From an uncultured Chloroflexia bacterium (lineage in GTDB: Bacteria; Chloroflexota; Anaerolineae; Anaerolineales; UBA4823), in NCBI GenBank assembly GCA_963714425.1, contig CAVQOI010000003.1:8062-72061 (forward strand): 64,000 nt of DNA, read 5' to 3'. Every line of letters begins with the position of its first letter. Positions within the stretch are counted from its first letter, which is position 1. The notes beneath the pieces are model-generated. The model was not told the origin of the DNA, searched no databases, and saw nothing but the letters and a program-made list of their open reading frames with translations. Position numbers and translations under genes: made by a program. This document shows positions 35,550 to 64,000 of the stretch, in pieces.

Positions 35550-35554
35550 AGGTT

Positions 35555-35913: not shown

Positions 35914-35934
35914 CTACGCTATACGCTACACGCT
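35914..35934. repeat. tandem heptamer NNACGCT x3
   Basis: ctacgct atacgct acacgct. Same unit as 2836-2856. Confidence 0.7.
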
Positions 35935-35939
35935 ATATC

Positions 35940-36251
35940 TTAGATCACCGGCACGCCTTCTAACTTGTCCTGGTTCGCCTGAACCTCATCGGTGACCACG
36001 ATCTCTTTCTCCCCCGCTTTTGTCAGGCGCACCGAGGCGCCCACTTCGAAGGTGCCCGCCAGGTAGGGCACACGTGACCCCGCCACATATCGCCTGCCGG
36101 ACTTGATGCGCTCGACGAGCGTCTTGCGGTCGTAGATCAGGTAATCCGTGAACACGGCCCCGCGCCGCTCGAACAGGCGCACCCAATCGATCTCTCCGTT
36201 TGACTTGTAGCGCACGGCCTCTACCACCCCGTCGTATTTCACCTTGGCCAT
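35940..36251 (-). CDS. hypothetical 103-aa protein
   Basis: ORF 35940..36308 with the start taken at MAKVKYDGVVEAV (36251). No family recognised. Confidence 0.5.
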   Translation of the reverse strand: MAKVKYDGVVEAVRYKSNGEIDWVRLFERRGAVFTDYLIYDRKTLVERIKSGRRYVAGSRVPYLAGTFEVGASVRLTKAGEKEIVVTDEVQANQDKLEGVPVI

Positions 36252-36325
36252 CGGCTGCTCTCCCTGGCGCCAGATTGTGCTGTGCGGGCGGCATAGCCGC
36301 CCGCACAATCATTCTTCTCTTCCTG

Positions 36326-36399
36326 TCGGGGCGGGCGGACTTGAACCGCCGGCCCCCGCGTCCCAAACGCGGTGCGCTACCGGACTGCGCTACGCCCCG
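36326..36399 (-). tRNA. tRNA-Pro (anticodon UGG)
   Basis: The reverse complement folds by hand as a cloverleaf: acceptor CGGGGCG/CGCCCCG, D stem GCGC/GCGC, anticodon stem CCGCG/CGCGG with loop TTTGGGA, T stem GGCGG/CCGCC with TTCAAGT. 74 nt, no encoded CCA. Confidence 0.9.
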
Positions 36400-36466
36400 A
36401 GTGATGCCTGCCTGTGATAGGCGAAGAGAGTATAATGCGAACCAGCCGGAAACGTCAAGGAGATTT

Positions 36467-48182: not shown

Positions 48183-48836
48183 TTACCCCATCTTCACCAC
48201 GATATCTGACAGCACGTTCGCGGCGTCATCGCCGCGGTCTGCAGCATTGCTCAGGTGGCGATATGTCTCACGCAGCTTGAGCATCTCGATGATGTGCTCG
48301 GCGTCTTTGGGCTGCATGAATAGATCCGCCAGTGCTTCACGGTACAAAGTCTCCACCTGATTTTCGAGCTGCTTGGCGCGCACTGCGTGAGTTTGCGTCA
48401 CGCCGGGGTGGTCTGCCAAGCGCTGCACACCCAGGTGCACATGGTTGGCGGCCTTCGCCAACAGGGCGCCGATTTCGCGGATGCGGGGGGTAGGCTCGAC
48501 ATCCAGGATGGACATCTCCATCACGGTGGTGTAGGCGTAGTCGAGCATATCGTCAATGGCGCGCGACAGCGAGTGGATATCCTCGCGGTCGATGGGGGTG
48601 ACGAAAGTTCGGTTCAGCTCATCGATCAAGATACGGCGGATTTCATCGGCAGCCGACTCGAGCTTATCCACCATGTCAGCACGGCGCTTGGTAGGCTTCT
48701 CGAAGTAAGCCACCAGAGCCTCCAGGCCTTCTTCAGTAATCTGTGCCTGCTGGGTGAGCAGCTCGATAAACCGGTTGGGTCTGCGCTTGAAGAGTGAGCG
48801 CAGACTGATTTTCTTCCACCAGGGTTTTGGGTCCAT
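48183..48836 (-). CDS. DUF47 family (PhoU-like, Pit accessory) protein
   Basis: The pattern ...E.EADEI.R.....L...F.TPIDREDI..L....DD..D is present. It sits immediately downstream of the PiT gene. Confidence 0.85.
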   Translation of the reverse strand: MDPKPWWKKISLRSLFKRRPNRFIELLTQQAQITEEGLEALVAYFEKPTKRRADMVDKLESAADEIRRILIDELNRTFVTPIDREDIHSLSRAIDDMLDYAYTTVMEMSILDVEPTPRIREIGALLAKAANHVHLGVQRLADHPGVTQTHAVRAKQLENQVETLYREALADLFMQPKDAEHIIEMLKLRETYRHLSNAADRGDDAANVLSDIVVKMG

Positions 48837-48852: not shown

Positions 48853-49836
48853 TCACATAATACGGCGCAATATCAAGAAGCAGATCGCGCCTAGTATGCC
48901 GGTTGTAGGGATGGTCAGGATCCAGGCAATGACGATCTGTGTGGCAGTTCCCCAGCGCACCATACGAACACGGTGAGCCGCGCCTGCTCCCACAATTGTC
49001 GAGCTGATTACCTGTGTCGTGCTCACCGGAGCGCCCAGGATCGCCGCGCCTAAGATAACCACAGTACTGGCGACCTGGGAAGAGAGAGCATGGATTGCGC
49101 GGATGCGGTAAAAGCCTGCGCCAATGGTGCGGATTAGCCGCCAGCCGCCGAATACAGTGCCCAGAGCGATTGCCGCCGCGCTGGCAGCGATCACCCACAA
49201 AGGCACCTGGAAAGTTGGCAGAATCCCAAATGCCACCAAACCCATGGCGATGATGCCCATTGTCTTCTGGGCGTCGTTGGTGCCGTGGCTCAATCCCAGA
49301 GTCAATGCTGTCAGCCACTGGGCGCGCCGGAAAAATATATTAATGGATGGTGGCGAATGCGACCCAATGAACAGGCTCTGGCGCATGATGAACCACCCGA
49401 AGATCAGCCCAATCACCGGGGAGATGAACAGCCCCAGGCCGACTTTGATCATTCCCTCCAGGTGAATAATCTCCAGCCCGAAGCCGGTGATCGCAGCGCC
49501 GACGAAGCCGCCGATCAAGGCGTGTGAGGAGCTGGAAGGGATGCCCAACCACCACGTGAGCACGTTCCAGAAGATGGCTGAGATGAGCGCCGCCAGCGCC
49601 ACCGGGATGGTAACTGCCTCAGCGTACACCACCTCGTTTCCGATCGTATTGGCGACCGCCACTCCAAAGAGGAATGGACCGACGAAGTTCGCCAGGGCGG
49701 TCATGCCCAACGCCCAGCGGGGTGAGATGGCGCGTGAGGCGATGGCGGTGGCCACCACATTGGCGCTGTCGTGGAAGCCGTTGAGGAAGTCAAAGAGCAG
49801 GGCAACGGCGACGAATGTTACGACGAGAGGGTTCAT
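48853..49836 (-). CDS. inorganic phosphate transporter, PiT family
   Basis: The duplicated signature NGFHDSANVVAT / HGTNDAQKTMG is present. About 10 TM segments. Confidence 0.9.
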   Translation of the reverse strand: MNPLVVTFVAVALLFDFLNGFHDSANVVATAIASRAISPRWALGMTALANFVGPFLFGVAVANTIGNEVVYAEAVTIPVALAALISAIFWNVLTWWLGIPSSSSHALIGGFVGAAITGFGLEIIHLEGMIKVGLGLFISPVIGLIFGWFIMRQSLFIGSHSPPSINIFFRRAQWLTALTLGLSHGTNDAQKTMGIIAMGLVAFGILPTFQVPLWVIAASAAAIALGTVFGGWRLIRTIGAGFYRIRAIHALSSQVASTVVILGAAILGAPVSTTQVISSTIVGAGAAHRVRMVRWGTATQIVIAWILTIPTTGILGAICFLILRRIM

Positions 49837-49857: not shown

Positions 49858-50703
49858 TCAAGCCACTGGCGCAGCTTTCATGGTTGTTGGGATAGGTATG
49901 CCGAGCAGGTTGCAGATCGTAGGCGCGATCTGTAGCTGCGATAGGGTGACACCGCTGTCGCCCTTTCCGGTGAGCTCGGGGCGGATGACATACAGGGGCA
50001 CCTCTCGCACATCGGGGGTAGTGCCGCCGTGCGAGCGATCCGCGCTGATTCCATGGTCACCGGTGACCAGGACAGTGTAACCGCCAGTTAACCACTCGAC
50101 AAGCTGCGCAGATAGGAACATATCCTGGTGGATAGCGTGGTTGCGGTACTCCGGCGAATCGGCGCCGTAGATCCCGCCGGTGTAATCCAAGCCCATGGGG
50201 TGCAGCAGCAGGTAATCGGGTTGGAAACGACGAACTAGCATGGCAGCTGTGTGCAGGGACTCCAAGTCGGGATAAGCGTCCTGGGTGTAGAAACGCCCGT
50301 GTTGGATAGGCAGGGAAGGGTCGTCTACTTCCCTGTCCTCTACCGGGTCGTAGGGGGCACGGTTGTACAGCTCAGAGAACCAGTAGTAGGCGGCCGCGGC
50401 GGTAGTCTTGCCGGCGCTCTGGGCAAGCTCGAACAGGTTGGGTTGGGACGAGCGTCGCACGACTAAGTTGGAGACCACGCCGTGCTGGCTGGAGGGCAGC
50501 CCAGTGTGGATCGTTTCATACATCGGGCGCGACATACTGGGCAGCTCACCGGTCACCTTGAAAAGGCTGGCCTGGCGAGTCTCCACCAGGTGACCCAAGT
50601 AACCCATAGATGCGACGGCGGTATCGTATCGTAGCGCGTCGGAGAGGATTAGGATGACTTTAGGCAATAGGGGGTCCCAATGGGTTCTTAATGCGAAGGG
50701 CAC
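49858..50703 (-). CDS. alkaline-phosphatase-superfamily enzyme, nucleotide pyrophosphatase/phosphodiesterase (NPP)-like, short form
   Basis: ILILSDALRYD (metal Asp), PSMSRPMYETIHTGLPSSQHG (nucleophile region, Ser in the Thr position) and VTGDHG. 281 aa. Confidence 0.7.
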   Translation of the reverse strand: MPFALRTHWDPLLPKVILILSDALRYDTAVASMGYLGHLVETRQASLFKVTGELPSMSRPMYETIHTGLPSSQHGVVSNLVVRRSSQPNLFELAQSAGKTTAAAAYYWFSELYNRAPYDPVEDREVDDPSLPIQHGRFYTQDAYPDLESLHTAAMLVRRFQPDYLLLHPMGLDYTGGIYGADSPEYRNHAIHQDMFLSAQLVEWLTGGYTVLVTGDHGISADRSHGGTTPDVREVPLYVIRPELTGKGDSGVTLSQLQIAPTICNLLGIPIPTTMKAAPVA

Positions 50704-50800: not shown

Positions 50801-51880
50801 TCACGCCGTAGAAATCTTCTCCTGGTTCAGGATCAGCACCGCCTCACGCGAGCAGGTGATCTGAACCTTATCCCCTATTCTGGGAAGTTCCAGGTATGGA
50901 TTATTAAACGTGTCCATGTGGAAGGTCGCATTACCAAAGCTTACCTGGATGCGCACAATCGAGCCCAAGAAAGTGATGTTTTCTATGGTGCATTCGATCA
51001 GGTTAGCCTTCTTGCCTTCCGATGCAAAGCTCAGCCGCTCAGGGCGGATTGCGATCATCACCCGGCTGCCAGCCTGGCGGTCAGCCAGGTTTCCTGCCGT
51101 CTGAAGGTTTTGTCCTTCGATGCGCAGCAAACTGCCGGCTGGATCGGTCACCTCAGCAGATACGGCATTCAACGTGCCAACGAACTGGGCGACGAATTCT
51201 GTCTTGGGGAAGTTATAGATCTCAAAGGGAGGTCCCACCTGTTCCATGCGTCCGGCGTTCATCACCACCACGCGGTCGGAGAGCGACAGGGCTTCCTCCT
51301 GATCGTGGGTGACGTAAATGGCAGTAATGCCCAGCTTCTGCTGGATGGCACGGATCTCAGAGCGCAGCGAGACGCGGATCTTGGCGTCCAGGGCAGAGAG
51401 AGGCTCGTCGAGTAAGAGAACCTCGGGGCTGAGCGCCAGGGCGCGTGCCAGGGCAACCCGCTGCTGCTGCCCGCCGGAGAGCTGGTGGGGATAGCGCTTG
51501 CCGAAACCGCCCATGGCAATCAAGTCCAGCATCTCGTCTACACGTTTCTTGATTTCCTCCGGCGTTTTCTTGGCGATCTTGAGGCCGAAGCCGATGTTGC
51601 CCCCTACCGTCATGTTGGGGAACAGGGCATATGCCTGGAAGACCATCCCCACATCGCGCTGGTTGGGGGGTCTGTCAGTAATATTTTCCCCGTCCATAAT
51701 GATCGTGCCGGCGGTGGGCGCCTCGAAGCCACCCACCATGCGCAAAGTGGTGGTCTTGCCGCAGCCACTGGGACCAAGGAAGGAAACCAGCTCGCCTTTT
51801 TGAATATCCAGGTTGAAATCCAGCACGGCTTCAGTCTTGCCGAATGTCTTGTTGAGATTGTGCAGTTCTAAGAATGCCAT
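50801..51880 (-). CDS. ABC transporter ATP-binding protein (PotA/CysA-type with a TOBE-like C-terminus)
   Basis: GPSGCGKTT, LSGGQQQRVALARAL and LLLDEP. Confidence 0.9.
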   Translation of the reverse strand: MAFLELHNLNKTFGKTEAVLDFNLDIQKGELVSFLGPSGCGKTTTLRMVGGFEAPTAGTIIMDGENITDRPPNQRDVGMVFQAYALFPNMTVGGNIGFGLKIAKKTPEEIKKRVDEMLDLIAMGGFGKRYPHQLSGGQQQRVALARALALSPEVLLLDEPLSALDAKIRVSLRSEIRAIQQKLGITAIYVTHDQEEALSLSDRVVVMNAGRMEQVGPPFEIYNFPKTEFVAQFVGTLNAVSAEVTDPAGSLLRIEGQNLQTAGNLADRQAGSRVMIAIRPERLSFASEGKKANLIECTIENITFLGSIVRIQVSFGNATFHMDTFNNPYLELPRIGDKVQITCSREAVLILNQEKISTA

Positions 51881-51895: not shown

Positions 51896-52684
51896 TTAGT
51901 GAGCTCCAGCCACTTGCTGGCCAGGAGCGCCGCGCCCGATCCACTGCAGGATGCCGATCGAAATCCAGGTCATCATAAAACTGATGACTGACAATGCCTG
52001 GGGTACGTAGGCGCGCATGGAGCCCATCTCCTCGATATATGGGCCGAAGGCGGGCCACGCCAGCAGAGAAGCGAAGGTAAATTCGCCCATGACAATGGCA
52101 AAGGTAAGGAAGACCCCACTCAAGATCGCCACGCGCAGGTTGGGGAAGATCACTTGAAAGAGGATGATCCGCCAGCCGGCGCCCAGGCTAAGGGCTGCCT
52201 CGGTCAGCGTGCGCACATCGATGGCGCGCAGCCCGGTATCGACTGCCCGGAACATATAGGGCAGTGATAGGACGACGTATCCCGCGATCAATAAGGTCGG
52301 GCTGCCGATCAAGAGAATGGGTGGCCTCCCGTAAAGCTTGATCATGCCGAATGTAAGCACCACTGCTGGCACCACGAAGGGCATCAGCGTGACGAACTCC
52401 ACCACCGGTCGCAGCCGCGGCATGCGCCAGTGCACCCAATAGGCGGTGGGCACCACTAACAGTGAGCTGATAACGATGGTGGTGATGGCCCACATCAACG
52501 AGTAACCGAAGTTTTGATAGAACTTCGGATCGCTGAAGGCGACGCGATACGCCTCAAAGGTATACCGGTCTTTAATCATGGTCAGGCTGAAAATGAAGGT
52601 GGATACGAGCGGCAGGAAGAAATAAATGATCCCAATGATGAAGATGATCCAGGCCCAAATATTGGTTCGCTTCATCGCAACCAC
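51896..52684 (-). CDS. ABC transporter permease
   Basis: 262 aa with 6 TM segments. EAA-like loop TEAALSLGAGWRIILFQVIFPNL. Confidence 0.85.
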   Translation of the reverse strand: MVAMKRTNIWAWIIFIIGIIYFFLPLVSTFIFSLTMIKDRYTFEAYRVAFSDPKFYQNFGYSLMWAITTIVISSLLVVPTAYWVHWRMPRLRPVVEFVTLMPFVVPAVVLTFGMIKLYGRPPILLIGSPTLLIAGYVVLSLPYMFRAVDTGLRAIDVRTLTEAALSLGAGWRIILFQVIFPNLRVAILSGVFLTFAIVMGEFTFASLLAWPAFGPYIEEMGSMRAYVPQALSVISFMMTWISIGILQWIGRGAPGQQVAGAH

Positions 52685-53583
52685 CTCGCGGCTCTGCGCT
52701 GTAACACGGTGTAACCCAGCATACTGGAAGACATGATGACGATCATGCCTAATGCCAGGGCGTTGCCCAGCCCCGGATTATAGAGCACATCCCCCTGGAT
52801 TTGGGCGCCGATCAAGATCGTGACCAGGTTTATGAAGCTGCCCGAGAAGGCGTAGGCAGTGGCGTAGGCGCCGAAGGCGTTTCCGAACAGCAGGATGGAT
52901 GTGCCCAGAAGGGATGGCAGCAAGATGGGCAAGGCGATATAGCGCCAGTAATGGTATGAGGAGCCGCCCAGGTTTTCACAGGCTTCCTTCCACTCTCTAC
53001 GCAGGCCGTCCAGCGCGGGAGCCATGATCAGCACCATGAGGGGGAATTGGAAGTACATGTAGACGATGCTCAACCCTACCATGTTGTAGATGCTGAAGCC
53101 CATCTGGCGCAGGTCCAGGTTGAAGATCAACTCAATCGTGCGCGTAACCAGGCCGGCGTTGCCCATGGTGGCTACGAAAGCAAAAGCCAGGGGCACGCCC
53201 GCGAAGTTGGAAGCCACGCCCGAGAAAGTTAATAAGAATGTCCGCAGGTTGCTGGGCAGTCCACCCAGGACGACGGCGTAAGCCAGCAAGAAGCCGAAAA
53301 GTGCTCCACCCGTGGCGGTGATGGCGCTGATGGACAGGCTGGTCTTATAGGCGTTGATGATGTCCCTGACGGTGAACAGGGCGATGATATTTTCGAATGT
53401 AAAATCACCCGCACGAGTCTGGAAACTGCGGAGGAAAATCGATACCGAAGGCAAGAAGAGGAAAAGAATGGCAAACAAAAAGAAAGGAGCCACTCCCAGC
53501 CAGCCCCAGTTGACCGTTCGGGTTGGGGGACGCGCTTTTGGCGCGTCCCCGTTGCTCTTGGATTGTCTGGTTATACCGGTCAC
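52672..53583 (-). CDS. ABC transporter permease
   Basis: 303 aa with 6 TM segments. EAA-like loop KEACENLGGSSYHYWRYIALPIL. Overlaps the next permease by 13 nt. Confidence 0.85.
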   Translation of the reverse strand: MTGITRQSKSNGDAPKARPPTRTVNWGWLGVAPFFLFAILFLFLPSVSIFLRSFQTRAGDFTFENIIALFTVRDIINAYKTSLSISAITATGGALFGFLLAYAVVLGGLPSNLRTFLLTFSGVASNFAGVPLAFAFVATMGNAGLVTRTIELIFNLDLRQMGFSIYNMVGLSIVYMYFQFPLMVLIMAPALDGLRREWKEACENLGGSSYHYWRYIALPILLPSLLGTSILLFGNAFGAYATAYAFSGSFINLVTILIGAQIQGDVLYNPGLGNALALGMIVIMSSSMLGYTVLQRRAARWLR

Positions 53584-53601: not shown

Positions 53602-54761
53602 TTATTCGCCGTAAACGACCTTGCGCCAGTTGTCGGTAATGTACTTGTTAGCGACCTGGAGCTGGTCAACAGTCAGGAAAGTTGCCTTCTCGTAAGCTTC
53701 GGCAGGTGGCAGCTTGTCCAGCATCTCTTGCGGGACGACGCCGCGCTTGACCATATCGTTGAAGCGGATCGGGTGGGCGTAACCCTTAAGGTACAGGTTC
53801 TGACCTTCATCGCTCATGACGAACTCCCACCACAGTCGGGCTGCGTAGGGGTGCGGGGCGTAGGCGCTGATGCCGCCGGCGTAGGGGCCAGCGACCACGC
53901 CGCTGTTCGGCACGATGATCTCGAGATCGGGGTTGCCCGCCAGGGCGTCCCGGTTAGCCAGGGCTAGGTAATCCCATTCCATGGTGACTAACGTCTCGCG
54001 GGCGGCAATGCGTCCCTGGTCGGAGATTACCGGGATGAAGTTGCCGGAGTCGACCATCTCTTTCCAGAACTGCAGGCCAGCCTCTGGCGCTTTTTCAATG
54101 TCCCCCCCGGTGCGGGCAAGCCCGGATGCCATAACGGTCTGAACCGATTGGTTGGACTTGAGCACGTCGCCAGCCATGGCGACCTTGCCTTTGAACTCAG
54201 GCTTGAGCAGGTCTTCCCAGTCTTTCGGGGAGTCGACAATGTCGGGCTTTACCACCTCGAAGACTAGCACGCCGTAGTACTCAGCCCACCAGAAACCATC
54301 CGGATTCTTCATCTCGATGGTATCCCAGGTCGGCAACCTTGTACTTGGCGAGCAAGCCATCGGTCATGGCAGTCTGCGGTGTGACCTACACCAATGTCGA
54401 TCACATCCGGAGCCTGCGGGCCTTTGCTATCCTTGTTGGCGCGGATGGCTTCCAGCTCGTCTGCTGAACCGGCATCTGGGTTCAGCTCGTTGATTGTCAG
54501 TCCGTACTTGGTCTTGAAGGTCTCGATAATCTCGCCGTAGTTAGCCCAGTCGTGCGGCAGGGCGATGGTGGTCAGCTGGCCTTCGCTCTTGGCTGCTGCG
54601 ATCAGCTCCTCAAGTGGGATGCTGTTGCCGCTGGTCAGGTCGGGCAGTGCCGCCCCTTCGGGTGCAGCAGGTCCGCCGCAAGCGGCGAGAAGCGATGCGC
54701 CACCGGCAAGGGCGCCCATTTTCAAGAACTGGCGTCGGCTGAGTTGTGAGTCCTGAGACAT
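53602..54761 (-). pseudogene. ABC transporter substrate-binding lipoprotein (Tat signal), reading frame broken by two 1-nt insertions
   Basis: SRRQFLKMGALAGGASLLAACGG gives a Tat motif plus lipobox. Three frames must be joined: ...DVIDIGVG (frame a), TPQTAMTDGLLAKYKVA (frame b), TWDTIEMKNPDGFWW... (frame c). The shifts lie near 54383-54389 and 54330-54333. Confidence 0.8.
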
Positions 54762-54974
54762 CTAATCCTCCTTCACTGGATTTTAAAGATAGTGTAGCTT
54801 GCTAAACGCTATTCTGGTACATCAGCTTTGTATATGCTCGAGACACCTCCTGAAGGGCTTGCAATCTTTACAAGAAGCGCGCAGTAGGGGGAGCGCGCTC
54901 ACCGATCATTGTAGCATTGTTAGGGGTCAGCGTCAATTTATTCTGGTGTGTCGTTTTCGTGGGCTTGACACCTG

Positions 54975-55003
54975 GTGGTTCAGCTTTTCAACAGCTGAAC
55001 CAC
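54975..55003. other. intercistronic hairpin 23 nt downstream of the APC permease stop
   Basis: gtggttcagct tttcaac agctgaaccac is a perfect 11-bp stem. There is no clear U-tract on the minus strand. Confidence 0.4.
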
Positions 55004-55025
55004 TAGAATGCTTGAGCCACAGTCA

Positions 55026-56910
55026 CTACTCGACCGGAATTTCCTTGTACACTTTGTCCACATCGATGCCCTGGCGGCGACGGTAGGCGTTGAAGCCGAA
55101 GTAAATCGCCGCAGCCAGCCCGTAGTTGATCAGCATGAAGACCATTGAGCTCAAGTTGCTCCAGCCGATGGCGTAGTAGGCGAAATCGAAGGGCGCTACA
55201 TGGGGATCCCAGAACCACTCGATCAGCAGCCAGTCCAGGAAGCCCAGGAACACCAGCCCGGCCAGGGTGATCAGCGGCATCGCAGCGCCGGAGGCGACCT
55301 TGCTGCCTACAACGTACAGGATCCACACCAGCATCACTGCGTTGAAAGCTGTAAGCGCAGCGACCAGGATCACGATCAGCCAGGTGAGTGGGGTAGCCAG
55401 CTCAGTCCCAGGCAGGCCGCTCATCACGGAGATGGCATAGCTGACGGAAGTGTAGATGAGATAAGCCGCCGCCACCGCAAAAACTGCGGTCATCAGCCAT
55501 CCCAGCCAGGATGGCACTTTGTAGCGGGCGATGGGCGAGCCCTCGAAGACCTCCTTCTGCCGCCAGGGCAGGATGGTTGCCGCCACCGTGGTACCCAAGA
55601 AGGTGACCGCGATCACAAGGGTGGCGTCCAGCACCAATGTCTGGAAGTTGAAGATATTGAAGGCATACAGGATGGATACAATTATCGATGGGATCACCAT
55701 CAGCAGCAGGGCGTTGACAGGTGTGCGCGTGCGAGGCTCTACCGCTGAAGCCCACTCAGGCAGCATGCGGTCGAAGGCTGCAGCAAAGATCACTCGCGTG
55801 GAGCTCAAGAACACCGTGCCCGACCAGCCGAACCACCACAGGCTCATCAGCAGGATAACGATAAATTGCAGCACGGGGCTCTTGGTCATGAAAGCGGCGA
55901 AGAGCACCGGGTAGGGCCAGAAGGGCAGGGGAGGCGCCTCTTCCACGTAGCCCCAGGTGTAGTTCCAGAACGCGCCGTTGGCCTTGTTGTAGAAATCCCA
56001 GCCAAGGGTCTTTGCGATTAGGGCAAAGAAAACCAGCGCCAGGATTGCCGTGACCACGATGGCAGCCGCCATGCCCCAGAAGTTGCGCTTGTAATCCGAA
56101 GCGCCGCGCACCTCGCCGTACAAGGTAGATCCCCAGTTCGGCCACAGGTTGAAGAACACGATCATGGGGATCAGCAAGAAGCTGGCGCCGAAGGCCAGGT
56201 TTCCCAGCGGCGCGGCAACTGTTCCGGCTGCTTCGCCGGCAGCCAGGGTAGCGTCATACAGGCCGCCTCCCTGCGCGCCGAAGAGCGCCGGGGCGAACTG
56301 GTCCAGGTTTGCGACGAAGGTCTCGTTGTTGCCGAAAAGAAGCAGGGCGAAGACCAGCGCCAGCCCGACCATGCCGCCCCAGAAGCAGAACTTCTGCACG
56401 CGGGCGTACCACTTCATGCCAATGGCGATGTAAAAGAAGCAGATACCGCAAACAACCAGCATGCCCACCAGCAAGCCGGTATTTTGTTGTGGTGAACCAC
56501 AGGGCGGCTGCTTTGAACCCCAGGATACCCAGGATAGGGGTGAAGAACTCGTAGTTAAGCATCTGCCCGTAGAGCGGCACCCACAGCCACAAGATGAACC
56601 ACCATCCAGTGACAGCCAGGATGAAGCCCCAGCCTCGCCCCAGGATGCGCGATTGCCACACGTAATCGCCGCCAGCACGCGGCATGGCAGAGATCAAGCT
56701 GGCGTACACGATCACCTCGAAGATTGTAAATATGCCGCCGATAACAACCGCCGTGGCAAGGTTGCCCTCAAAATAGTAACAGTAGGAGAAGATGAACAGA
56801 CCCAGGGTAATCAGGTTGATTGAGAATGTCGCGTAGATGAACGCATCGAATATAGACCAGGATCTAACCAGACCGCTGGCTTTACGCACGAAAAGGGTTA
56901 CCTCACTCAT
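55026..56910 (-). pseudogene. APC-superfamily permease (paralog of 61853..63703), frame broken by a 1-nt insertion in an A4 run
   Basis: ORFs 56254..56910 and 55026..56678 join as ..GFKAAALWFTT(T)|NTGLLVGMLVV.. at tttt 56482-56485. This aligns with IGLWFTGATGIIVTSIL of the paralog. The two share the N-terminus F.RKASGLVR and the C-terminus KEIP.E. Confidence 0.8.
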
Positions 56911-56999
56911 GTCAATGCTCCTCCAAGATTGTTGATTGGTTATCTTCCGTTTCCGCGAACTATTGAAGTTTCCTGACTTCCACCTCCTCTCACGGTTTT

Positions 57000-57092
57000 A
57001 CCCCTCCCCCAAGAAGGGGGAGTAATTTCTCTTCTTCCCTCCCCCATTTGGGGGAGGGGAAGCCTGCCGGAGGCAGGTAAGGGGTGGGGGTA
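57000..57092. repeat. GC-rich hairpin repeat family member (two hairpins)
   Basis: cccctcccccaagaagggggag ... ccctcccccatttgggggaggggaagcctgccggaggcaggtaaggggtggggg. Confidence 0.7.
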
Positions 57093-57140
57093 ATCTCCGG
57101 TGTGAAGCATACCAAACCTTATAATTGTTATAAAAGCTTA

Positions 57141-58079
57141 CTATCCCGTCACCATGATGTAGTTGCCCAGTGCCTTGGGTTTCAATTCGATCACGACACC
57201 GTGCAGGATACCCTGCTCGTACATGCTACCAGGATTGATGCACAGCGTCCGGCGTAACTTGCGTGAGCCTTTACCTTCGTGGATGTGCCCGTGCAGGCTT
57301 ACCAGGGGCTGGTACTTCTCAATGACATTCAAGACCGCACGGCTTCCCACCGGCACCAGCGAGCGACCGGCGTATGCCGGACGCAGGTCGTCGGTGAGCT
57401 CAGGCGCTTCGTCCAGCCCGCTGCCATAGGGAGGTGCGTGCAAATTGAAGACCGCGTTGGGGATATCGCGAACCTGGCTGATCACGGATTCGATGCGTTG
57501 CAGGAGTGCCTCATCGGGCTCCTCCCGGTGCGTGTTCCAGGGGGTGGGGTTGCTCCAGCCGGTGCTGGCCATCTCGTGGTGGTCGTCGAGCTGCACTACG
57601 CGCCCTTCAGCCAGCTTCACGCTCTTAGAAGACGCCAGAACCGGGTCGATCTCCATCATGTCGTCGTTGCCAGGACACACATAGCAGTTAATTCCAGTGC
57701 CTGCCAGCTTCTCATCGGCATAGTCCATCCAGCGCTGGACAGTGCTCAAAGCCTGTTCCAGGAACAGTTCGTCCGATTTGCCCGGGGTAGATGAGATAAA
57801 CGCCACCTCGTCAGGATCGGTTACGTAGGGATAGTATCCCCGATTCTGGATTGTCTGAGCCATCTTATCCACTTCTTCCTGGCTTTCCATGATGGTCTCT
57901 TGTTCCAGCAGGGTGACTTTGTATTTCCCACCACCTTGGGCGATAATGGGAATTATCGCTTTGCCGGTCATATCCCCGCCCAGGATTAGGGTATCCACTT
58001 CGTAGAATTTGCCGGCGTTGATGAATTTCTTCCAGCAGATCTCAGAGCCGTGAACGTCAGTGGCGTAATATAATTTCAT
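57141..58079 (-). CDS. cytoplasmic metallophosphoesterase family protein
   Basis: ATDVHGS, LILGGDMTGK, PGNDD, NLHAPP and HGHIHEG motifs. It is a paralog of the partial gene at 63853..64000. Confidence 0.8.
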   Translation of the reverse strand: MKLYYATDVHGSEICWKKFINAGKFYEVDTLILGGDMTGKAIIPIIAQGGGKYKVTLLEQETIMESQEEVDKMAQTIQNRGYYPYVTDPDEVAFISSTPGKSDELFLEQALSTVQRWMDYADEKLAGTGINCYVCPGNDDMMEIDPVLASSKSVKLAEGRVVQLDDHHEMASTGWSNPTPWNTHREEPDEALLQRIESVISQVRDIPNAVFNLHAPPYGSGLDEAPELTDDLRPAYAGRSLVPVGSRAVLNVIEKYQPLVSLHGHIHEGKGSRKLRRTLCINPGSMYEQGILHGVVIELKPKALGNYIMVTG

Positions 58080-58111
58080 GGGGCTCTCCTTGGGTTAATC
58101 ATCCATAATTA

Positions 58112-58139
58112 ACTATAATCATTCCTTCGAACTTGTCAA
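58112..58139 (-). promoter_or_regulatory. near-consensus sigma70 promoter TTGACA-16-TATAGT (minus strand) upstream of the phosphoesterase gene
   Basis: Minus-strand reading gives cgaTTGACAagttcgaaggaatgatTATAGTtaattatgg. The -10 box ends 32 nt before the ATG at 58079. Confidence 0.6.
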
Positions 58140-58175
58140 TCGATTCTGTGAAGTTATGCATCCTTTGACAAGTTT

Positions 58176-58189
58176 ATTGCTATAGCAAT
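58176..58189. promoter_or_regulatory. 14-bp perfect palindrome ATTGCTATAGCAAT (candidate operator)
   Basis: Read directly. It lies just upstream of the -35 box. A second inverted repeat, AACTTGTCAA (58130-58139) / TTGACAAGTT (58165-58174), overlaps the -35. Confidence 0.45.
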
Positions 58190-58261
58190 TATTTCTTGAA
58201 TCTCTGGTGCTCTCTCGATGTGCCCGCAGATCAACTGCGGGCAATCGGCGCAGAGAAGTTG

Positions 58262-59167
58262 TTATTTCTCCTGTACATCTTTGAGCCACCCAGGGAATTC
58301 GGGGGAGTCCAGCTTCTCCTCAGCCCTCCCCCAACGCTCGATCGCCCATCCCCAGAAGTCATAATCGATGGTGGAGATCTTGGCTTGGATGGCAGCCCAC
58401 AGTGCCCAGCCCACGTCGGACATGATCATGTTCAGCTTCATGCGCGCCAGCTTGGATAGCGTGGCCGCGCCAAAATAAGCAGCGCACATCTCCTGGATGC
58501 GTTCTTCGTCAAAGCCCATCTCCTGGCAGGTGTTGCCCAGCTCAAAACAGGGATCATTGTTGCCGCTGTATTCGTAGTCGATCAAGCGCAGCAGTTTTCC
58601 GTCGTCAATGTAATTCTCGCCCAGCAGGTCATTGTTGCAAGGCACGCTGGCAAGCGGCTGGGCGGCGAAGGCTTTTTCGATCTGGTATACCGCAGGCATG
58701 CGCTCGGGATAGCGATCGGGGATGGTGACATCATACTGCTTGCAGATATCCAGGTAGAACTCGGTCAGGCGGAACATATTGAAATCAGTGAGAAAGGGCG
58801 GCCCGTTGTGCAGCATCTTGATCGATTGCGCCATACGCGTGGGCATGCCCGGCTCCTGAAGCTTGTCTTTAGACATGGTTTCGCCGTAGATAAACTCCAG
58901 AACCATCACATCGTGTTCCGGCAGGTGGTAGACCACTTTTGCTCCCACGCCTGCCTGCGCAGCCGCCTTGGTGTTGTGCACTTCGTTTTTGCGGTCGATT
59001 GCCAGTAGTTCCGTCTTGGGACCGGGGATGCGCACGAAATACGGTACGCGATCAACTTCTACGCGGAAGTTTGTGTTGGTCAGACCTCCCAAAAGGGGTT
59101 GGATGGCGACCAGCTTCCCCCGCCAGTCTGGAATGCTCTTGGCAACTTCCTCGATGGTGATGGTCAT
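58262..59167 (-). CDS. choline/ethanolamine-kinase-like phosphotransferase (APH/ChoK fold)
   Basis: LLGGLTNTNFRV. Brenner-type motif PCNNDLLGENYI (Asn in the usual His position). LIDYEYSGNNDPCFELGN. Confidence 0.8.
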   Translation of the reverse strand: MTITIEEVAKSIPDWRGKLVAIQPLLGGLTNTNFRVEVDRVPYFVRIPGPKTELLAIDRKNEVHNTKAAAQAGVGAKVVYHLPEHDVMVLEFIYGETMSKDKLQEPGMPTRMAQSIKMLHNGPPFLTDFNMFRLTEFYLDICKQYDVTIPDRYPERMPAVYQIEKAFAAQPLASVPCNNDLLGENYIDDGKLLRLIDYEYSGNNDPCFELGNTCQEMGFDEERIQEMCAAYFGAATLSKLARMKLNMIMSDVGWALWAAIQAKISTIDYDFWGWAIERWGRAEEKLDSPEFPGWLKDVQEK

Positions 59168-59187
59168 GCAAGTCTCCTCGAAATGAA

Positions 59188-59223
59188 GACCCTAAAGGTG
59201 GGTGATCGCGCACCTTTAGGGTC
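59188..59223. other. intercistronic hairpin between the FAD/GcvT gene and the kinase gene
   Basis: gaccctaaaggtg / cacctttagggtc is a perfect 13-bp stem with a 10-nt loop. Confidence 0.45.
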
Positions 59224-59233
59224 TTTAAGGGCT

Positions 59234-61660
59234 CTAAGCCCTGAGCCTCTCGCCTTTCGGGTCGAGCAGGACGGTGGGTGAAACTTCCGCGGGATGCACG
59301 GCATCGAATACATCCAGCATCAGCCGGGTGCCTCTCTTCGCCAATTCCAATGGTAAATAGGCGTAGACGATATTGCGCTTGAGCGTGTATCCATAGCCGC
59401 CCGAGCGCACACGCGAGACGACCTGCTTGCCGAGATATACAGCCTCTCCCCCATAAACCGGCAGGAACTCCTCCCCATCCAGTACCAGGGTGCACAGCTT
59501 ACGATCCACCCCCGCTTCTTTGACCTTGACCAAAGCATCCCGCCCAGTGAAGTCACCTTTCTCCATGTCCACGCAGAAACCCAGACCGGCAGCGTAGGGA
59601 TTTTCCATGGGGGTTACGTCGGCGGTGAAGTAGCGGTAGCCTTTTTCCAGGCGCAGCGAGTCGGCAGCCTTGTAGCCCGCTAACTCCAGGCCGAAATCCT
59701 TCCCGGCTTCGTACAGCAGATCCCAAAGCATCATAGCCCGCTCATAGGGTACGTACAGCTCCCAGCCGAGCTCACCCACATAGCTGACGCGCTGGGCCAG
59801 CACCTGGGCATCGTTGACTTCGATCCACACCGCGGTCAGATAGGGGTTTGCCTGGTTTGAGACATCGCTGGCGGTCACTTTGCTTAGCACGTGGCGCGCT
59901 TTGGGACCCCACAGAGCCAGGCAAGCCCAATCGGTGGTCACGTCTCGCACTTCTACCGGGGGGTCGTCAGAGCGGATCGCCATACGAATCCACCCCAAGT
60001 CGTTGGCAATAAAACCAGAGCCGGTAACCACCCGGAAATAATCTTCCCCGAGGCGGGTGATGGTAAGGTCGGCCTCCACCCCGCCGCGCGTGTTGAGCAG
60101 CTGGGTGTAGATTGCGCTGCCCACCGGGCGGTCGATGTTGCTGTCTGCCACGCGCTGCATGAGGGCCAGGGCGCCGGGACCGCGCACATCGAACTTGCCG
60201 AAGGATGTCAGGTCGAACAGCGCCACACGCTCGCGAGCGGCCTCATGTTCCTGCCCAACCCGCTCAAAGAACGGTGGGCGCGTCCAACCCCACTGGCGCT
60301 GGTCTGCGCCTGCCATGCGCCATGGCTTGCCTGGCTGGAAGAAGTTGACTCGCTCCCAACCGAATTTCTCACCGAATACGGCGCCATGCTCTTGCAGCCT
60401 GAAATGCACCGGGCTGGTGCGATATGGGCGCGCCCATTCGTTCTCGTCATGAGGGAATTTCAGGCGATAGTAGTATTTGACGCACTCGCGTGTGCGCTCG
60501 ACGGCATAGGGCGTATGGGCGAAGTAATCGCCGAAGCGCGTGGAGCGGAACGCGTATATATCCTGGGTTGGCTCGCCTTCCACAATCCACTCTGCCATCA
60601 ACCTGCCCATGCCTCCGGCGCCGCCATAGCCATTCAACGACATACCGCACGTATTCCAGAAACCGCGCACCCCGGGCATAGGTCCCAGGATAGGCTGGCA
60701 ATCGGGGGTGTAGGCGCCGGGATGGTTCACCAGCGTGATGATCTCAGCCTTGTCGAGGAAGGGTAACCTGCGGATAGCGCCTTCAAATAACTGCTCGAAG
60801 CGGTCGAAATCCGGGGGCAGGGTGGTCCCTGCGTGATCCCAAGGGACGCCATCGATCCAGCGCTCTTTAGGGTTAGGCTCGTAGCCACCGATCACCAGTC
60901 CGCCTTGCTCTTCGCGCATGTACACCAGATTATCCGGGTCGCGCAGGCAGGGGGTGCTGTGGGCGAATTCATTGCCTGGGACGGCTTTGAGGGCGATGTG
61001 CTGGTGGTCTATCGGCACCGTGGGCAGGTGCAGCCCAGCCATGGCGGCGACGCGCGGCCCCCACAGGCCGGTGGCGTTGACCACGTGCTCGCATTTGATC
61101 GATCCCTTGTTAGTGAGCACCTCGCTCACCTCGCCTTTGGGTGAGATTTTGATGCCTGTGAGGCGTGTGCCTGTGTACACCTGGCAGCCCATCTCGCGCA
61201 CGATGCGCGCCATGCTGGTGGTGGTCAGATAAGGATCCAGGTGACCATCGCGCGGCAAGTAGATGGCGCCGTACAGGTCTTTATCGCTGAGCTGGGGCAT
61301 AATGCGCAGCGCCTCGGCAGGGGCGATTGTCTCGACCTCCATACCGATACCCTTGGCGCGGCTGACACTGCGCTGCAGCTCGCGTAGCTGCTCCTTGGAA
61401 GACGCCACGCGCAGGCTGCCAACATGGTCGAACAGGCCTAGCTCGCTGTATAGCTCGATGCTGTATTTGCGGAACTGCATTAATGTTTGGGATGTGGCAA
61501 ATTGTGTTACCAGACCGGCAGCCTGGGCAGATTCACCGCTGGCGATCTCATCCTTTTCCAGCAGCACCACATCGGTCCAACCTAGCTTGGCAAGGTGATA
61601 GGCAACGTTAACTCCGTAAATACCTCCCCCCACGACGACGACTCGAGCTTGGTCTTTCAT
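59234..61660 (-). CDS. FAD-dependent oxidoreductase fused to a GcvT-like folate-binding aminomethyltransferase domain (dimethylglycine/sarcosine dehydrogenase family)
   Basis: The start is taken at MKDQARVVVVGGGIYG (GGAGG lies 9 nt upstream). The DAO domain is followed by GcvT and GcvT_C-like regions (..FDLTSFGKFDVRGPGA.., ..LRLEKGY..). About 808 aa. Confidence 0.85.
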   Translation of the reverse strand: MKDQARVVVVGGGIYGVNVAYHLAKLGWTDVVLLEKDEIASGESAQAAGLVTQFATSQTLMQFRKYSIELYSELGLFDHVGSLRVASSKEQLRELQRSVSRAKGIGMEVETIAPAEALRIMPQLSDKDLYGAIYLPRDGHLDPYLTTTSMARIVREMGCQVYTGTRLTGIKISPKGEVSEVLTNKGSIKCEHVVNATGLWGPRVAAMAGLHLPTVPIDHQHIALKAVPGNEFAHSTPCLRDPDNLVYMREEQGGLVIGGYEPNPKERWIDGVPWDHAGTTLPPDFDRFEQLFEGAIRRLPFLDKAEIITLVNHPGAYTPDCQPILGPMPGVRGFWNTCGMSLNGYGGAGGMGRLMAEWIVEGEPTQDIYAFRSTRFGDYFAHTPYAVERTRECVKYYYRLKFPHDENEWARPYRTSPVHFRLQEHGAVFGEKFGWERVNFFQPGKPWRMAGADQRQWGWTRPPFFERVGQEHEAARERVALFDLTSFGKFDVRGPGALALMQRVADSNIDRPVGSAIYTQLLNTRGGVEADLTITRLGEDYFRVVTGSGFIANDLGWIRMAIRSDDPPVEVRDVTTDWACLALWGPKARHVLSKVTASDVSNQANPYLTAVWIEVNDAQVLAQRVSYVGELGWELYVPYERAMMLWDLLYEAGKDFGLELAGYKAADSLRLEKGYRYFTADVTPMENPYAAGLGFCVDMEKGDFTGRDALVKVKEAGVDRKLCTLVLDGEEFLPVYGGEAVYLGKQVVSRVRSGGYGYTLKRNIVYAYLPLELAKRGTRLMLDVFDAVHPAEVSPTVLLDPKGERLRA

Positions 61661-61795
61661 GGATGTGCACCTCCTCAGAATCACACGAATTGTCTATCCA
61701 TAAGGGAGGGTGCGCGTATTGTCCGATCCTCCCAAACCCTTGGACAGTTCCTACAGGAGTACAGGATCCCCCCAGGTGATTTTATTGTTGAGCTT

Positions 61796-61828
61796 CAGGG
61801 TTTCCAGCTGTGCTGGCTGGAAACCCTG
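61796..61828. other. intercistronic hairpin downstream of the APC permease gene
   Basis: cagggtttccagc / gctggaaaccctg is a perfect 13-bp stem with a 7-nt loop. Confidence 0.4.
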
Positions 61829-61852
61829 CTTTCCTGATCAGCCTGCCGGAGA

Positions 61853-63703
61853 TCACTCAGGCGGGATCTCCTTGAAGGCGTACTCCACATTGATGCCGCG
61901 CGCCCGCTGTGCCCGCTTGACCAGAATGTACCAGACGCCGGAAAGTATGATGATGCCAAATGCGATGATCTGCGCCCACAGACCGCCGATGCTGGAGAAA
62001 TCCCAGTTGCCCAGAACTCCCAGTTGCGGAGCGAGCAGGAAGGCGACCACCATCGCCATACCGAAGCCGCCGCCCAGCATACCAACGGCGGAGAGCCAGG
62101 GCATAGGCTTGCCGCTGAACCACTCCATGATGTGCTGGCGCATGGGGTTGAGGAACAGGATTACAGCGATGATCGAACCCAGCCGCACCAGCCAGATCAG
62201 CAGCGGGTAGCTGCCGAAAGCCTGCGGCGCTAGCACCCAGGAGGTGATAACGAAAGCCAGCACGCCAAGGATGGTGAATAGTACGCCGACGTAGCCGCTG
62301 ACGTTGTACTTCGCCCCGGGTGAGGCGTCATACACTTCTTTGGCGCGATAGGGCAGCAGCGCGCCTGCCAGGCAGGTGATGATGAACACATAGCCGCAGC
62401 CAAAGGTCACGCCCAGGGTCAAGCCGACCCAGCCGCCCACCAGGTTGTAAGCCAGGATGACAGGGATGCTGCCCAGGAAGTATGCCAGGTGAGCGTTCGC
62501 CGGTGTGTGCCGGCGCTCATCCACCTTGCTGAACCAATCCGGTAGCAGCCGGTCGAGCGACATGGCTACCAGCACACGCGTCATGCCGATATAGCAGTTG
62601 TGCACGATCTGATGGGAGTTCAAAATGTATCCCAGACCAATGATCAGCACGATCAACGGGCTGGCTGTTACAGCCACCGCGATAATATTAGGCCACAGGT
62701 AGAACCCATTGACGGTTGCTTCGGGGAGTCCATACCAGTAGCCCGCCCCAGCCACGTAAAGGAATTCGGAGCCAGCCAGGCGCTCCAGCCCCACCGCCAG
62801 CAGGGCCAGCAGCAAGCCGGTGACAATCAGCGAGCCGACCATGATAAAGGCCTGGTTTTTGAAGGAGCGTGCGTCCTTGATCTCGCCGTTCTGCTGGGCG
62901 CTGTAGGTAGCCCACTGCAGGGAGGTCCAGGCAATGGGGGCGACCAGGATGGTGGCAATCAGGCTGAAGGGCGGATTCACATCGACACCCGCAGACTGAG
63001 CCGCAGCCGTGGCGGTGGCGTAGAAATTCTCGCCCGCACCCGACGCGAGAGCAAAGGCATTCAGGCGCTCGACGAACTGCGATGCCGGAGTGAAGAAGAG
63101 CACGGCAAACATCACGGCAAATGCCAGCAGCACGGCATACCACATCACCCACTGGAAGCGCACGTAATTCTTGAAGCCGCTGGTCAGAATGAGCATCGAT
63201 ACCAGGGCATTCAAGATGCTGGTGACAATGATGCCGGTTGCTCCGGTAAACCATAAGCCGATACTGGTGAATGCGGCGTTATCCATCGTAGCACCCAGGC
63301 CAAGGAAGAGCGGCGCGAACCCCAGGTAGGCGAGCAGCCAGCCGGAGAGAGCTACCCACTGCAAGATCCAGATCACGTAACCCGACATCACCACAGTAAA
63401 GGCTGTGCCGCCGCCGAAGACGCGGCTCTCGAAGACGTAGTCGCCGCCCGAACGGGGTAGGGCGGTGGACAGCCACACGTAAGCCAGGGCGATGGGGATC
63501 TCGATCAGCATGGCTAGGATGATGCCCCAGGCCATCTTCCCGCCGGGTAAAGCGCCTGGCGCCCAAAGGTAGGTCCAGGGGAAGATTAATCCCATGGTCA
63601 GAATGTTATAGACGAAAGCAGAATATGGGGACATGACTCGCACCAGACCAGAAGCTTTACGGGTAAAAACCTCGGGCCGGGACGGAGCGGTTGTTGCAGT
63701 CAT
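61853..63703 (-). CDS. APC-superfamily permease
   Basis: 616 aa with about 14 TM segments. It is a paralog of 55026..56910. Confidence 0.85.
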   Translation of the reverse strand: MTATTAPSRPEVFTRKASGLVRVMSPYSAFVYNILTMGLIFPWTYLWAPGALPGGKMAWGIILAMLIEIPIALAYVWLSTALPRSGGDYVFESRVFGGGTAFTVVMSGYVIWILQWVALSGWLLAYLGFAPLFLGLGATMDNAAFTSIGLWFTGATGIIVTSILNALVSMLILTSGFKNYVRFQWVMWYAVLLAFAVMFAVLFFTPASQFVERLNAFALASGAGENFYATATAAAQSAGVDVNPPFSLIATILVAPIAWTSLQWATYSAQQNGEIKDARSFKNQAFIMVGSLIVTGLLLALLAVGLERLAGSEFLYVAGAGYWYGLPEATVNGFYLWPNIIAVAVTASPLIVLIIGLGYILNSHQIVHNCYIGMTRVLVAMSLDRLLPDWFSKVDERRHTPANAHLAYFLGSIPVILAYNLVGGWVGLTLGVTFGCGYVFIITCLAGALLPYRAKEVYDASPGAKYNVSGYVGVLFTILGVLAFVITSWVLAPQAFGSYPLLIWLVRLGSIIAVILFLNPMRQHIMEWFSGKPMPWLSAVGMLGGGFGMAMVVAFLLAPQLGVLGNWDFSSIGGLWAQIIAFGIIILSGVWYILVKRAQRARGINVEYAFKEIPPE

Positions 63704-63852
63704 CTTTTCCTCCTATTGGTCGTTGATCAATGAATTTTCGTTGAGAACGTTGCCGGGGACTTGCACCCAGGGCTGGTGGACCAGCCTGCGGTTAAGCCTG
63801 CCTGCACTAGACAACCCAATATATGCCCAATAGTTTCCTCCTTTTCCAATGC

Positions 63853-64000
63853 TCAACCCGACGTCATCTGGTAGCCGTCGATGATGCCGTCTGAAAAGTT
63901 CACTAGGCAGCCGCGTAAGATCCCCTCGCCATACTCGCTCCCGGGGTTAACGCAAGTCGTGCGACCAATTTTCGCCACCGATTGGGATTCGTGGATGTGC
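63853..64000 (-). CDS. metallophosphoesterase, 3' partial (continues beyond the window), paralog of 57141..58079
   Basis: Hand translation of the minus strand gives HIHESQSVAKIGRTTCVNPGSEYGEGILRGCLVNFSDGIIDGYQMTSG*. This aligns with HGHIHEGKGSRKLRRTLCINPGSMYEQGILHGVVIEL... Confidence 0.7.
   Translation of the reverse strand, partial: HIHESQSVAKIGRTTCVNPGSEYGEGILRGCLVNFSDGIIDGYQMTSG

Follow-up and report, generated by a model that had tools for sequence, protein, structure and literature searches.

What would a kinase of the choline-kinase family do beside a flavin- and folate-dependent dehydrogenase, with a metallophosphoesterase (MPE)-permease pair on either side? This question was raised by a 64,000-nucleotide stretch of DNA, hereafter the window, from an uncultured Chloroflexia bacterium of the order Anaerolineales (GenBank assembly GCA_963714425.1, contig CAVQOI010000003.1, positions 8,062 to 72,061). 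Open reading frame (ORF) listing and profile searches agreed with a preliminary description of this DNA in finding six genes on the minus strand in the order MPE2, APC2, flavin adenine dinucleotide (FAD) fusion, kinase, MPE1, and APC1, designated here MPE-B, APC-A, DAO-GcvT, KIN, MPE-A, and APC-B, respectively. We tentatively read the gene island to which they belong as serving, most likely among the explanations considered, the catabolism of choline-family N-methylated 2-amino-alcohols, which would be demethylated as phospho-bases; the candidate substrates are choline, dimethylethanolamine, and monomethylethanolamine. This reading draws on gene content, protein families, intact catalytic motifs, and linkage, from which we infer the substrate and the use of phospho-esters, and also, by analogy, on a system described in Eubacterium limosum.

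By its sequence, KIN belongs to the choline-kinase family. It scored 86 bits on the Choline_kinase profile PF01633 (cut-off 29) versus 46 bits on the APH profile PF01636, and its closest solved relatives were 3dxq (146 bits) and pneumococcal LicA (4r77, 67 bits), to which the segments NNDLLGEN, IDYEYSGNND, and W..W could be aligned, whereas the best NCBIfam model, that of the guanitoxin kinase GntI, was matched with 189 bits, under its cut-off. The ChoK motif LIDYEYSGNNDP aligned with LIDWEYSSMNDP of LicA, and GWALW of the aromatic cage aligned with IWSLW of LicA and with the human ChoK-alpha segment, in keeping with the choline/ethanolamine kinase motifs reported earlier. The catalytic Asp180 and Asn185 were present, and the leading His of the Brenner motif (H-x-D-x4-N) was indeed replaced by Asn, in the context PCNNDLLGEN. 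Asn occupied this position in 77 of 83 KIN orthologues and His in the other six, while all kinases of a second type (KIN2, described below) kept the His. Methylthioribose (MTR), fructosamine, and homoserine kinase identities were ruled out by profile searches, in which the protein grouped with the choline kinases and gave no MTR-kinase or fructosamine-kinase match. KIN thus resembles LicA and the uncharacterised 3dxq kinase in fold, catalytic Asp and Asn, ChoK motif, and the two Trp residues of the choline cage, but differs from LicA in the Asn substitution, in having no LicB, LicC, or LicD partners, and in its catabolic context. The family assignment together with the W..W cage points to a small ammonium head group as a feature of the substrate. 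Metagenomic relatives sharing more than 70% identity with KIN number in the thousands.

DAO-GcvT possessed the domains DAO (222 bits), FAO_M (33 bits), GCV_T (244 bits), and GCV_T_C (65 bits), all above their cut-offs, and had the same length as its orthologues when read from the start codon given in Table 1. It aligned end to end with rat dimethylglycine dehydrogenase (DMGDH; 4pab, 485 bits, residues 2-806) and with human DMGDH, and matched dimethylglycine oxidase (DMGO; 1pj5) with 399 bits. In DMGO the catalytic dyad is His225/Tyr259 (PMC5082570). At the dyad positions, DHQH and VYMRE of the window protein aligned with rat VQHQY and SYYLRQ, and the DHQH motif was found in 47 of 55 clade-1 orthologues (45 with PVDHQHI and two with PIDHQHI). 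The protein therefore shares with DMGDH, sarcosine dehydrogenase (SARDH), and Arthrobacter DMGO the four-domain architecture, the His/Tyr dyad, and an intact folate domain; an ETF partner is likewise encoded beside a paralogue, the ETF alpha and beta genes following the second DAO-GcvT gene in locus L090, which fits a dehydrogenase. It differs from them in being distant (485 bits over about 805 residues), in being always linked to a kinase, and in carrying, in the window, Gln in place of the flavinylated His. The enzyme may act on phospho-esters, and its context argues for a substrate other than dimethylglycine or sarcosine.

Covalent FAD is attached in human DMGDH to His91 through an 8-alpha-N3-histidyl bond (PMC5082570). 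HMMER alignment to rat DMGDH set GESAQAAGL against STWHAAGL, the Gln falling at the position of the His, as had been noticed from the letters, but the distinct non-covalent-FAD subfamily suggested on that ground did not hold up. In an alignment of 97 island homologues, 58 of 63 orthologues had kept the His, as had each of the 34 clade-2 paralogues, and Gln was confined to the window and its two closest relatives (L003 and L005). The Gln thus represents a lineage-specific loss of the His, and a subfamily with non-covalent FAD was ruled out because the orthologues mostly retain the residue. Trp was seen at the same position (GESGWAAGL) in L082 and L074, a second and independent loss.

When one genome per species was scanned with KIN, 177 hits were obtained, and the best 80 loci were examined; all 80 were from Chloroflexota, mostly from metagenome-assembled genomes of Anaerolineales. 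ORFs were called in these loci and compared by blastp, and frequencies were counted over the 49 loci that spanned 15 kb or more. APC permease genes were present in 47 of these, DAO-GcvT in 39, MPE-A and MttB-family genes in 34 each, the gene of a DeoR-type regulator in 33, and MPE-B in 32; KIN adjoined DAO-GcvT in 31, while MPE-A and MPE-B directly preceded an APC gene in 32 and 29, respectively. The co-localisation of the four families proposed earlier as a check was thus observed across the 80 loci, and their recurrence together in dozens of genomes indicates clustering far beyond chance. The rightward arm of the island runs DeoR, MPE-B, APC-A, KIN, DAO-GcvT, GbcA-like Rieske oxygenase (optional), PfkB, MttB-family protein, MPE-A, APC-B, ABC transporter, alkaline-phosphatase-superfamily protein (optional), and PHO4. 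A divergent arm, usually present, encodes a 263-aa protein of nucleotidyltransferase (NTase) fold, a four-CBS protein, and a second pair of DAO-GcvT and kinase (KIN2), which share 45% and 32% identity, respectively, with those of the first pair. The order is APC-DAO-KIN in the clade of the window and APC-KIN-DAO elsewhere, and persistence of linkage despite varying order argues for function over mere shared ancestry; in particular, the pairing of kinase and dehydrogenase survives rearrangement and recurs in the second paralogue pair, which counts for a coupled function. The window holds the right-hand part of this conserved island in a reduced form common to L003, L005, L007, L008, L012, and L033, with no MttB, Rieske, or PfkB gene found in it; the left arm would lie beyond position 64,000.

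A precedent for the phospho-ester idea exists, since Eubacterium limosum, a gut bacterium not related to the Anaerolineales, phosphorylates choline before MttB-type demethylation; of the route proposed here, the first step alone has thus been shown by experiment. Its choline-kinase-like MthK makes phosphocholine, and its MttB-family MthB demethylates phosphocholine only (Jiang et al., J Biol Chem 2025, PMC12155760), which the authors described as the first case of a substrate modified before MttB-type demethylation, suggesting that the phosphate supplies the acidic group needed by this family (PMC12155760). The island is like the MthK/MthB/MthC/MthA system in that a choline-kinase-like gene with Brenner and ChoK motifs lies beside N-demethylation genes; in E. 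limosum the demethylase acts on the phospho-ester and the methyl group is finally transferred to tetrahydrofolate, and the same is proposed for the island. In the related loci L084/85, an NTase-fold protein, a CBS protein, a kinase, an MttB-family protein, and a corrinoid protein are encoded in a row, of which the kinase-MttB-corrinoid part mirrors the E. limosum arrangement; the corrinoid protein was found in these loci only, and no MthA-like gene was seen. Unlike in E. limosum, the kinase of the window is partnered with a flavin-dependent DMGDH-type dehydrogenase carrying its own GcvT part instead of a cobalamin system, MttB is missing from the window (although present in 34 of the 49 related loci), and the island has enzymes for further demethylation, whereas the E. 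limosum pathway ends at dimethylaminoethanol. Literature searches on choline kinase with DMGDH, on Anaerolineae with choline kinase, and on phospho-dimethylethanolamine oxidation yielded nothing beyond the E. limosum paper, and no paper describing this island or coupling choline-type kinases with DMGDH-type enzymes was found. The earlier statement that no such pathway had been described therefore has to be narrowed: the concept of phosphorylation followed by demethylation has had a precedent since 2025, while no description of such a kinase coupled to a DMGDH-type flavin/folate enzyme was found.

By analogy, the free base would enter through the APC permeases and be phosphorylated at its hydroxyl by KIN, and the phospho-base, not the free base, would be the substrate of N-demethylation. 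In the fuller islands, the quaternary methyl group would be removed by the MttB-family or GbcA-like Rieske enzyme, and the tertiary and secondary methyl groups by the two DMGDH-type FAD/tetrahydrofolate enzymes, the one-carbon units passing to tetrahydrofolate and the electrons to ETF. The product, phosphoethanolamine, would be hydrolysed or metabolised further, some islands having a HisC-like aminotransferase, a class II aldolase, and a HAD hydrolase that may take part, and the PhnS/T/U-like ABC transporter and PHO4 may serve to take up ready-made phospho-bases or their phosphonate analogues and to deal with the phosphate set free. With one dehydrogenase-kinase pair and neither MttB nor Rieske enzyme, the copy in the window would take tertiary or secondary amines as its starting material, unless further genes lie beyond position 64,000. 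The methylated-amine route of the preliminary description is thus favoured by the kinase family, the linkage within the island, and the N-methyl enzymes of related loci, but it is weakened in one part: since the window has no enzyme for a quaternary amine, choline is not obviously a substrate of this copy.

Enzymes attacking quaternary N-methyl groups in the related islands are MttB-family proteins, GbcA-like Rieske proteins, and, in one lineage, the corrinoid protein, and they fit a methylated-amine substrate. They would also fit catabolism of glycine betaine, dimethylglycine, and sarcosine, in which the pair of DAO-GcvT proteins would function as DMGDH and SARDH, the Rieske and MttB enzymes would demethylate betaine, and the kinases, MPEs, and permeases would have another purpose and merely share the regulon. 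The 485- and 399-bit matches to DMGDH and DMGO, the closest solved relatives of DAO-GcvT, and the ETF genes beside one paralogue are consistent with this explanation, as are the best family of the Rieske protein, GbcA, and the best PDB match of the island MttB proteins, MtgB. The Rieske score of 394 bits, however, was far under the GbcA cut-off of 670, and the island MttB proteins (L002, 15315-16766; L084, 12753-14216) lacked four binding residues of MtgB, namely Y97 and F356, its two aromatic residues, and the carboxylate-binding R312 and H348, so that MtgB (glycine betaine) identity was ruled out. Arg312 is conserved in all characterised members of the family, including MthB, according to the MtgB paper (PMC13080624); in pairwise HMMER alignments, Gly took its place in the island MttB and Ser in that of L084. 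These proteins are therefore neither MtgB nor demonstrable MthB orthologues, and their substrate may be of a new type. Among the conserved neighbours, moreover, no betA/betB-like genes, that is, no choline or betaine-aldehyde dehydrogenases, and no BCCT- or OpuA-type transporters were found; the lack of betA/betB-like neighbours, with that of the glycine-betaine residues, argues against a plain betaine route, as does the adjacency of kinase and dehydrogenase, which both paralogue pairs keep. We regard this explanation as unlikely, although it is the best placed of the alternatives.

The MPE-permease pairs, described earlier as a duplicated functional unit, were real as a unit. The MPE-B fragment at the end of the window, translated as HIHESQSVAKIGRTTCVNPGSEYGEGILRGCLVNFSDGIIDGYQMTSG*, was 42% identical to the C-terminus of MPE-A, in keeping with the shared C-terminal sequence noted before, and 77-92% identical to the 331-aa MPE-B orthologues of related genomes. 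The shared termini of the permeases were likewise found (FTRKASGLVR...KEIPPE in APC-A and FVRKASGLVR...KEIPVE in APC-B). Identity between paralogues was low, however (41% between MPE-A and MPE-B and 26-36% between APC-A and APC-B), and no nucleotide-level repeat joining the two pairs was found in the window, which together indicate that the unit is ancient; these data and the conservation of both paralogues across related loci ruled out a recent tandem duplication. APC-A scored 56.8 bits on AA_permease_2 (cut-off 27) and was 70-92% identical to the permease following MPE-B in related loci. APC-B was split into two ORFs in different frames (56254-56910 and 55026-56678), which scored 30.5 and 20.9 bits on the same profile, the shift lying beside an AAAA run; in blastx comparison with intact orthologues, the frame switched at about region position 612-637. 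It shared 63-91% identity with the orthologues in the five closest loci (L003, L005, L007, L008, and L012).

As to what the MPEs do, the dephosphorylation ascribed to them earlier was weakened. In MPE-A, the metal ligands D8, H10, D36, N138, H214, H265, and H267 (motifs DxH, GD, GN, H, and GHxH) were invariant in 25 orthologues, but motif III read GNDD, also invariant in 25 sequences, and so lacked the His of GNH[D/E]. The AlphaFold model of MPE-A (pLDDT 75) gave as its top Foldseek match aq_1956 (2yvt, E 3e-11), followed by TT1561, Mre11, Rv0805, and MJ0936, that is, nucleases and diesterases after uncharacterised MPEs. The motif-III His is likewise missing from MJ0936 and from enzymes of the YfcE type, which work as phosphodiesterases. 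In view of the GNDD motif and of the diesterase- or nuclease-like folds, a role of the MPEs as phosphomonoesterases is no more than putative; they resemble diesterases more than phosphatases, and every role given to them here is tentative. MPE-A has the same fold and the same metal ligands as aq_1956 (2yvt), TT1561 (1uf3), MJ0936 (1s3l), and Rv0805, but the island MPEs differ from these small enzymes, to which TM-scores reached only 0.5-0.7, in their length (312-331 aa), in an inserted beta/alpha segment, and in that their genes always stand immediately before that of an APC permease. No characterised close relative of them was found.

Several observations weigh against the phospho-base reading. 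APC-B and the ABC binding protein (Table 1) are frameshifted in the window, by a single shift each within 56440-56520 and 54290-54390, respectively; since L001, a related long-read assembly, contains similar split genes, these shifts may be assembly errors and not marks of pseudogenes. None of the dehydrogenase residues could be linked to the binding of phosphate, and the MttB proteins, having no Arg312 equivalent in their alignments, are not demonstrable orthologues of the phosphocholine demethylase MthB. If one phosphorylation sufficed, two ChoK-type kinases and a PfkB kinase would be unnecessary, and the conserved NTase-fold and CBS proteins fit no role in the scheme. The locus counts are not independent, as all loci come from one phylum and mostly from Anaerolineales assemblies. 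Finally, a variant without the dehydrogenase suggests that the kinase module can work without demethylation. This minimal variant, seen in Candidatus Villigracilis and relatives (about ten genomes; L026, L029, L048, L053, L058, L064, L066, L067, L070, and L075), comprises MPE, APC-B, KIN, and the NTase-fold protein (35-40% identical), with no demethylase nearby.

The minimal variant is what would be expected of an anabolic, Lic-like salvage, in which imported choline is phosphorylated, activated by the NTase-fold protein, and used to decorate lipids or glycans, with the MPEs trimming or recycling phosphodiesters. LicA is among the solved relatives of KIN, and the 263-aa protein (unk263) carries the GS...DIDF motif of Pol-beta NTases, with fold matches to ANT(2''), LnuA, and FKRP; yet these matches were weak (E about 2e-3), no LicC-type or LicD-type transferase was found, and in most genomes the module is surrounded by N-demethylase genes of three kinds, a context suggestive of catabolism. 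Salvage of this kind is accordingly an improbable explanation for the island. The NTase-fold and four-CBS proteins always formed a pair heading the divergent arm (L002, 4780-5571 and 3957-4769; also L083, L084, L089, L090, and L091), and the pair was retained even in L084/85, which have no flavin dehydrogenase.

The genes downstream of APC-B, where the ABC transporter genes are found in related loci too, bring in a phosphonate as a further candidate substrate. The binding protein, encoded by ORFs 54309-54761 (TAT_signal) and 53602-54360 (SBP_bac_6, 71 bits), had a weak PhnS2 match, its gene being syntenic in related loci; the ATPase scored 427 bits on PhnT2, a model of the 2-aminoethylphosphonate type (cut-off 457.7), and ABC permease 1, the one permease that was scanned, matched the PhnU and CysT models. 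The alkaline-phosphatase-superfamily protein scored 51 bits on PF01663, and its single, weak PDB match was phosphonoacetate hydrolase; PDB searches with it and with the binding protein gave nothing informative. PHO4 and its DUF47 partner were 72% and 60% identical, respectively, to the island copies at other loci. Degradation of an N-methylated 2-aminoethylphosphonate, with PhnS/T/U-like uptake, demethylation, transamination, and hydrolysis, could account for these matches, for the 153 bits scored by an EamA protein of fuller islands on the phosphonate-associated phn_DUF6 model, and for the aminotransferase, HAD hydrolase, and PHO4 of such islands. All of the supporting profile matches were under their curated cut-offs, however, equivalogs of PhnW, PhnX, PhnY, and PhnZ were not found, and two or three kinases and the APC permeases, the best-linked genes, would have no role, so that we consider this explanation very improbable. 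Least probable of all is that the substrate is some N-methylated amino-sugar or polyol processed in the form of a sugar phosphate, for although the DeoR regulator best matched AgaR (175 bits), the PfkB protein matched hexose and 1-phosphofructokinase models, the aldolase passed the cbbA ketose-bisphosphate cut-off, and three loci have a TAL_FSA gene after the island, the choline-kinase family and W..W cage of KIN point to a small ammonium head group, and the aldolase, transaldolase, and transketolase, none of which is in the window, may be housekeeping neighbours. Each of these alternatives accounts for some genes and leaves the best-linked ones without a role.

Returning to the demethylation of phospho-bases, genes found after the second kinase-dehydrogenase pair in one clade (L083, 15319-19133, and the P0281 locus) encode a class II ketose-bisphosphate aldolase, a HisC/CobD-like aminotransferase, a HAD hydrolase, and the phn_DUF6-like EamA protein. 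These suggest further metabolism of a phospho-amino-alcohol, but they may instead be housekeeping neighbours; in 20 loci or more, only the aldolase gene of this set was seen, at the edge of the locus. HisC and CobD both act on phospho-amino-alcohols, and DeoR-family members typically sense sugar or polyol phosphates; the DeoR-type regulator, the HisC/CobD-like aminotransferase, and the phosphate transporter fit phosphorylated intermediates. A bolder version, which we think possible but doubtful, is complete choline mineralisation from phosphocholine through phospho-dimethylethanolamine and phospho-monomethylethanolamine to phosphoethanolamine. The last two steps would be catalysed by two hitherto unrecognised "phospho-base dehydrogenases" of the DMGDH family, three one-carbon units would be placed onto folate with no betaine or trimethylamine formed, and the two-carbon phosphate would be converted by the HisC-like transaminase to phosphoglycolaldehyde and pass into sugar-phosphate metabolism, with the MPE-permease pairs as a new coupled unit supplying or removing phosphodiester or phospho-base forms.

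Choline and its relatives are major sources of nitrogen, carbon, and one-carbon units in soils, sediments, guts, and wastewater, and the fate of choline (trimethylamine, betaine, or other) determines methane precursors and the output of trimethylamine and trimethylamine N-oxide. The only experimentally shown route of phosphorylation followed by demethylation is anaerobic, cobalamin-dependent, and limited to one methyl group. If the function proposed here is true, the phosphorylate-first logic would be extended to flavin/folate enzymes and complete demethylation, new substrate specificities would be added to the DMGDH and choline-kinase families, and thousands of highly conserved metagenomic proteins that lack annotation, from an abundant but poorly cultured group, would gain a function. 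As the parts are small soluble enzymes, the hypothesis is directly testable in vitro.

Table 1 Genes of the island part carried by the window, its downstream transporter and phosphate genes, and a palindrome between the dehydrogenase and kinase genes
Feature	Position (nt)	Strand	Remarks
MPE-B paralogue (MPE2 of the preliminary description)	63853..64000	-	last 48 codons only, with the stop ending at 63853; gene continues past the window
APC-A permease (APC2 of the preliminary description), 616 aa	61853..63703	-	PF13520 AA_permease_2
DAO+FAO_M+GCV_T+GCV_T_C fusion (DAO-GcvT), 808 aa from ATG at MKDQ	59234..61660	-	Pfam, 4pab alignment
Palindrome, 40 nt, near-perfect (inverted repeat I2)	59186..59225	.	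20-nt arms, 90% complementary, without spacer
Choline/ethanolamine-kinase-family kinase (KIN), 301 aa	58262..59167	-	PF01633
MPE-A metallophosphoesterase (MPE1 of the preliminary description), 312 aa	57141..58079	-	metal-ligand motifs, AlphaFold model
APC-B permease (APC1 of the preliminary description)	55026..56910	-	one frameshift near 56,480
ABC substrate-binding protein with TAT signal	53602..54761	-	split by frameshift at about 54,310-54,360
ABC permease 1	52672-53583	-	PhnU and CysT model matches
ABC permease 2	51896-52684	-	
ABC ATPase	50801-51880	-	PhnT2-like
Alkaline-phosphatase-superfamily protein	49858-50703	-	PF01663 Phosphodiest
PHO4/PiT phosphate transporter	48853-49836	-	PHO4 family
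PhoU_div/DUF47 partner of PHO4	48183-48836	-	DUF47 family

The palindrome listed in Table 1 takes up the larger part of the 66 bp that separate the dehydrogenase and kinase genes and could act as an RNA hairpin or an operator. G/C-rich hairpins were also observed at 57001-57059, in the gap between MPE-A and APC-B, and at 54972-55006, just past the APC-B stop codon; both may mark transcript boundaries. Scans of the window for terminators and promoters returned numbers of sites no higher than in shuffled sequence, and an Rfam search of the window revealed no riboswitch and no other Rfam element. Apart from the island, the region 34000-36400 had a GC content of 49%, compared with 55-62% elsewhere in the window. 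An ORF in this patch (35049-35549) resembles, by eye, a Y1 transposase of the IS200/RAYT type, and it adjoins the only tRNA gene of the window, a tRNA-Pro at 36325-36399.

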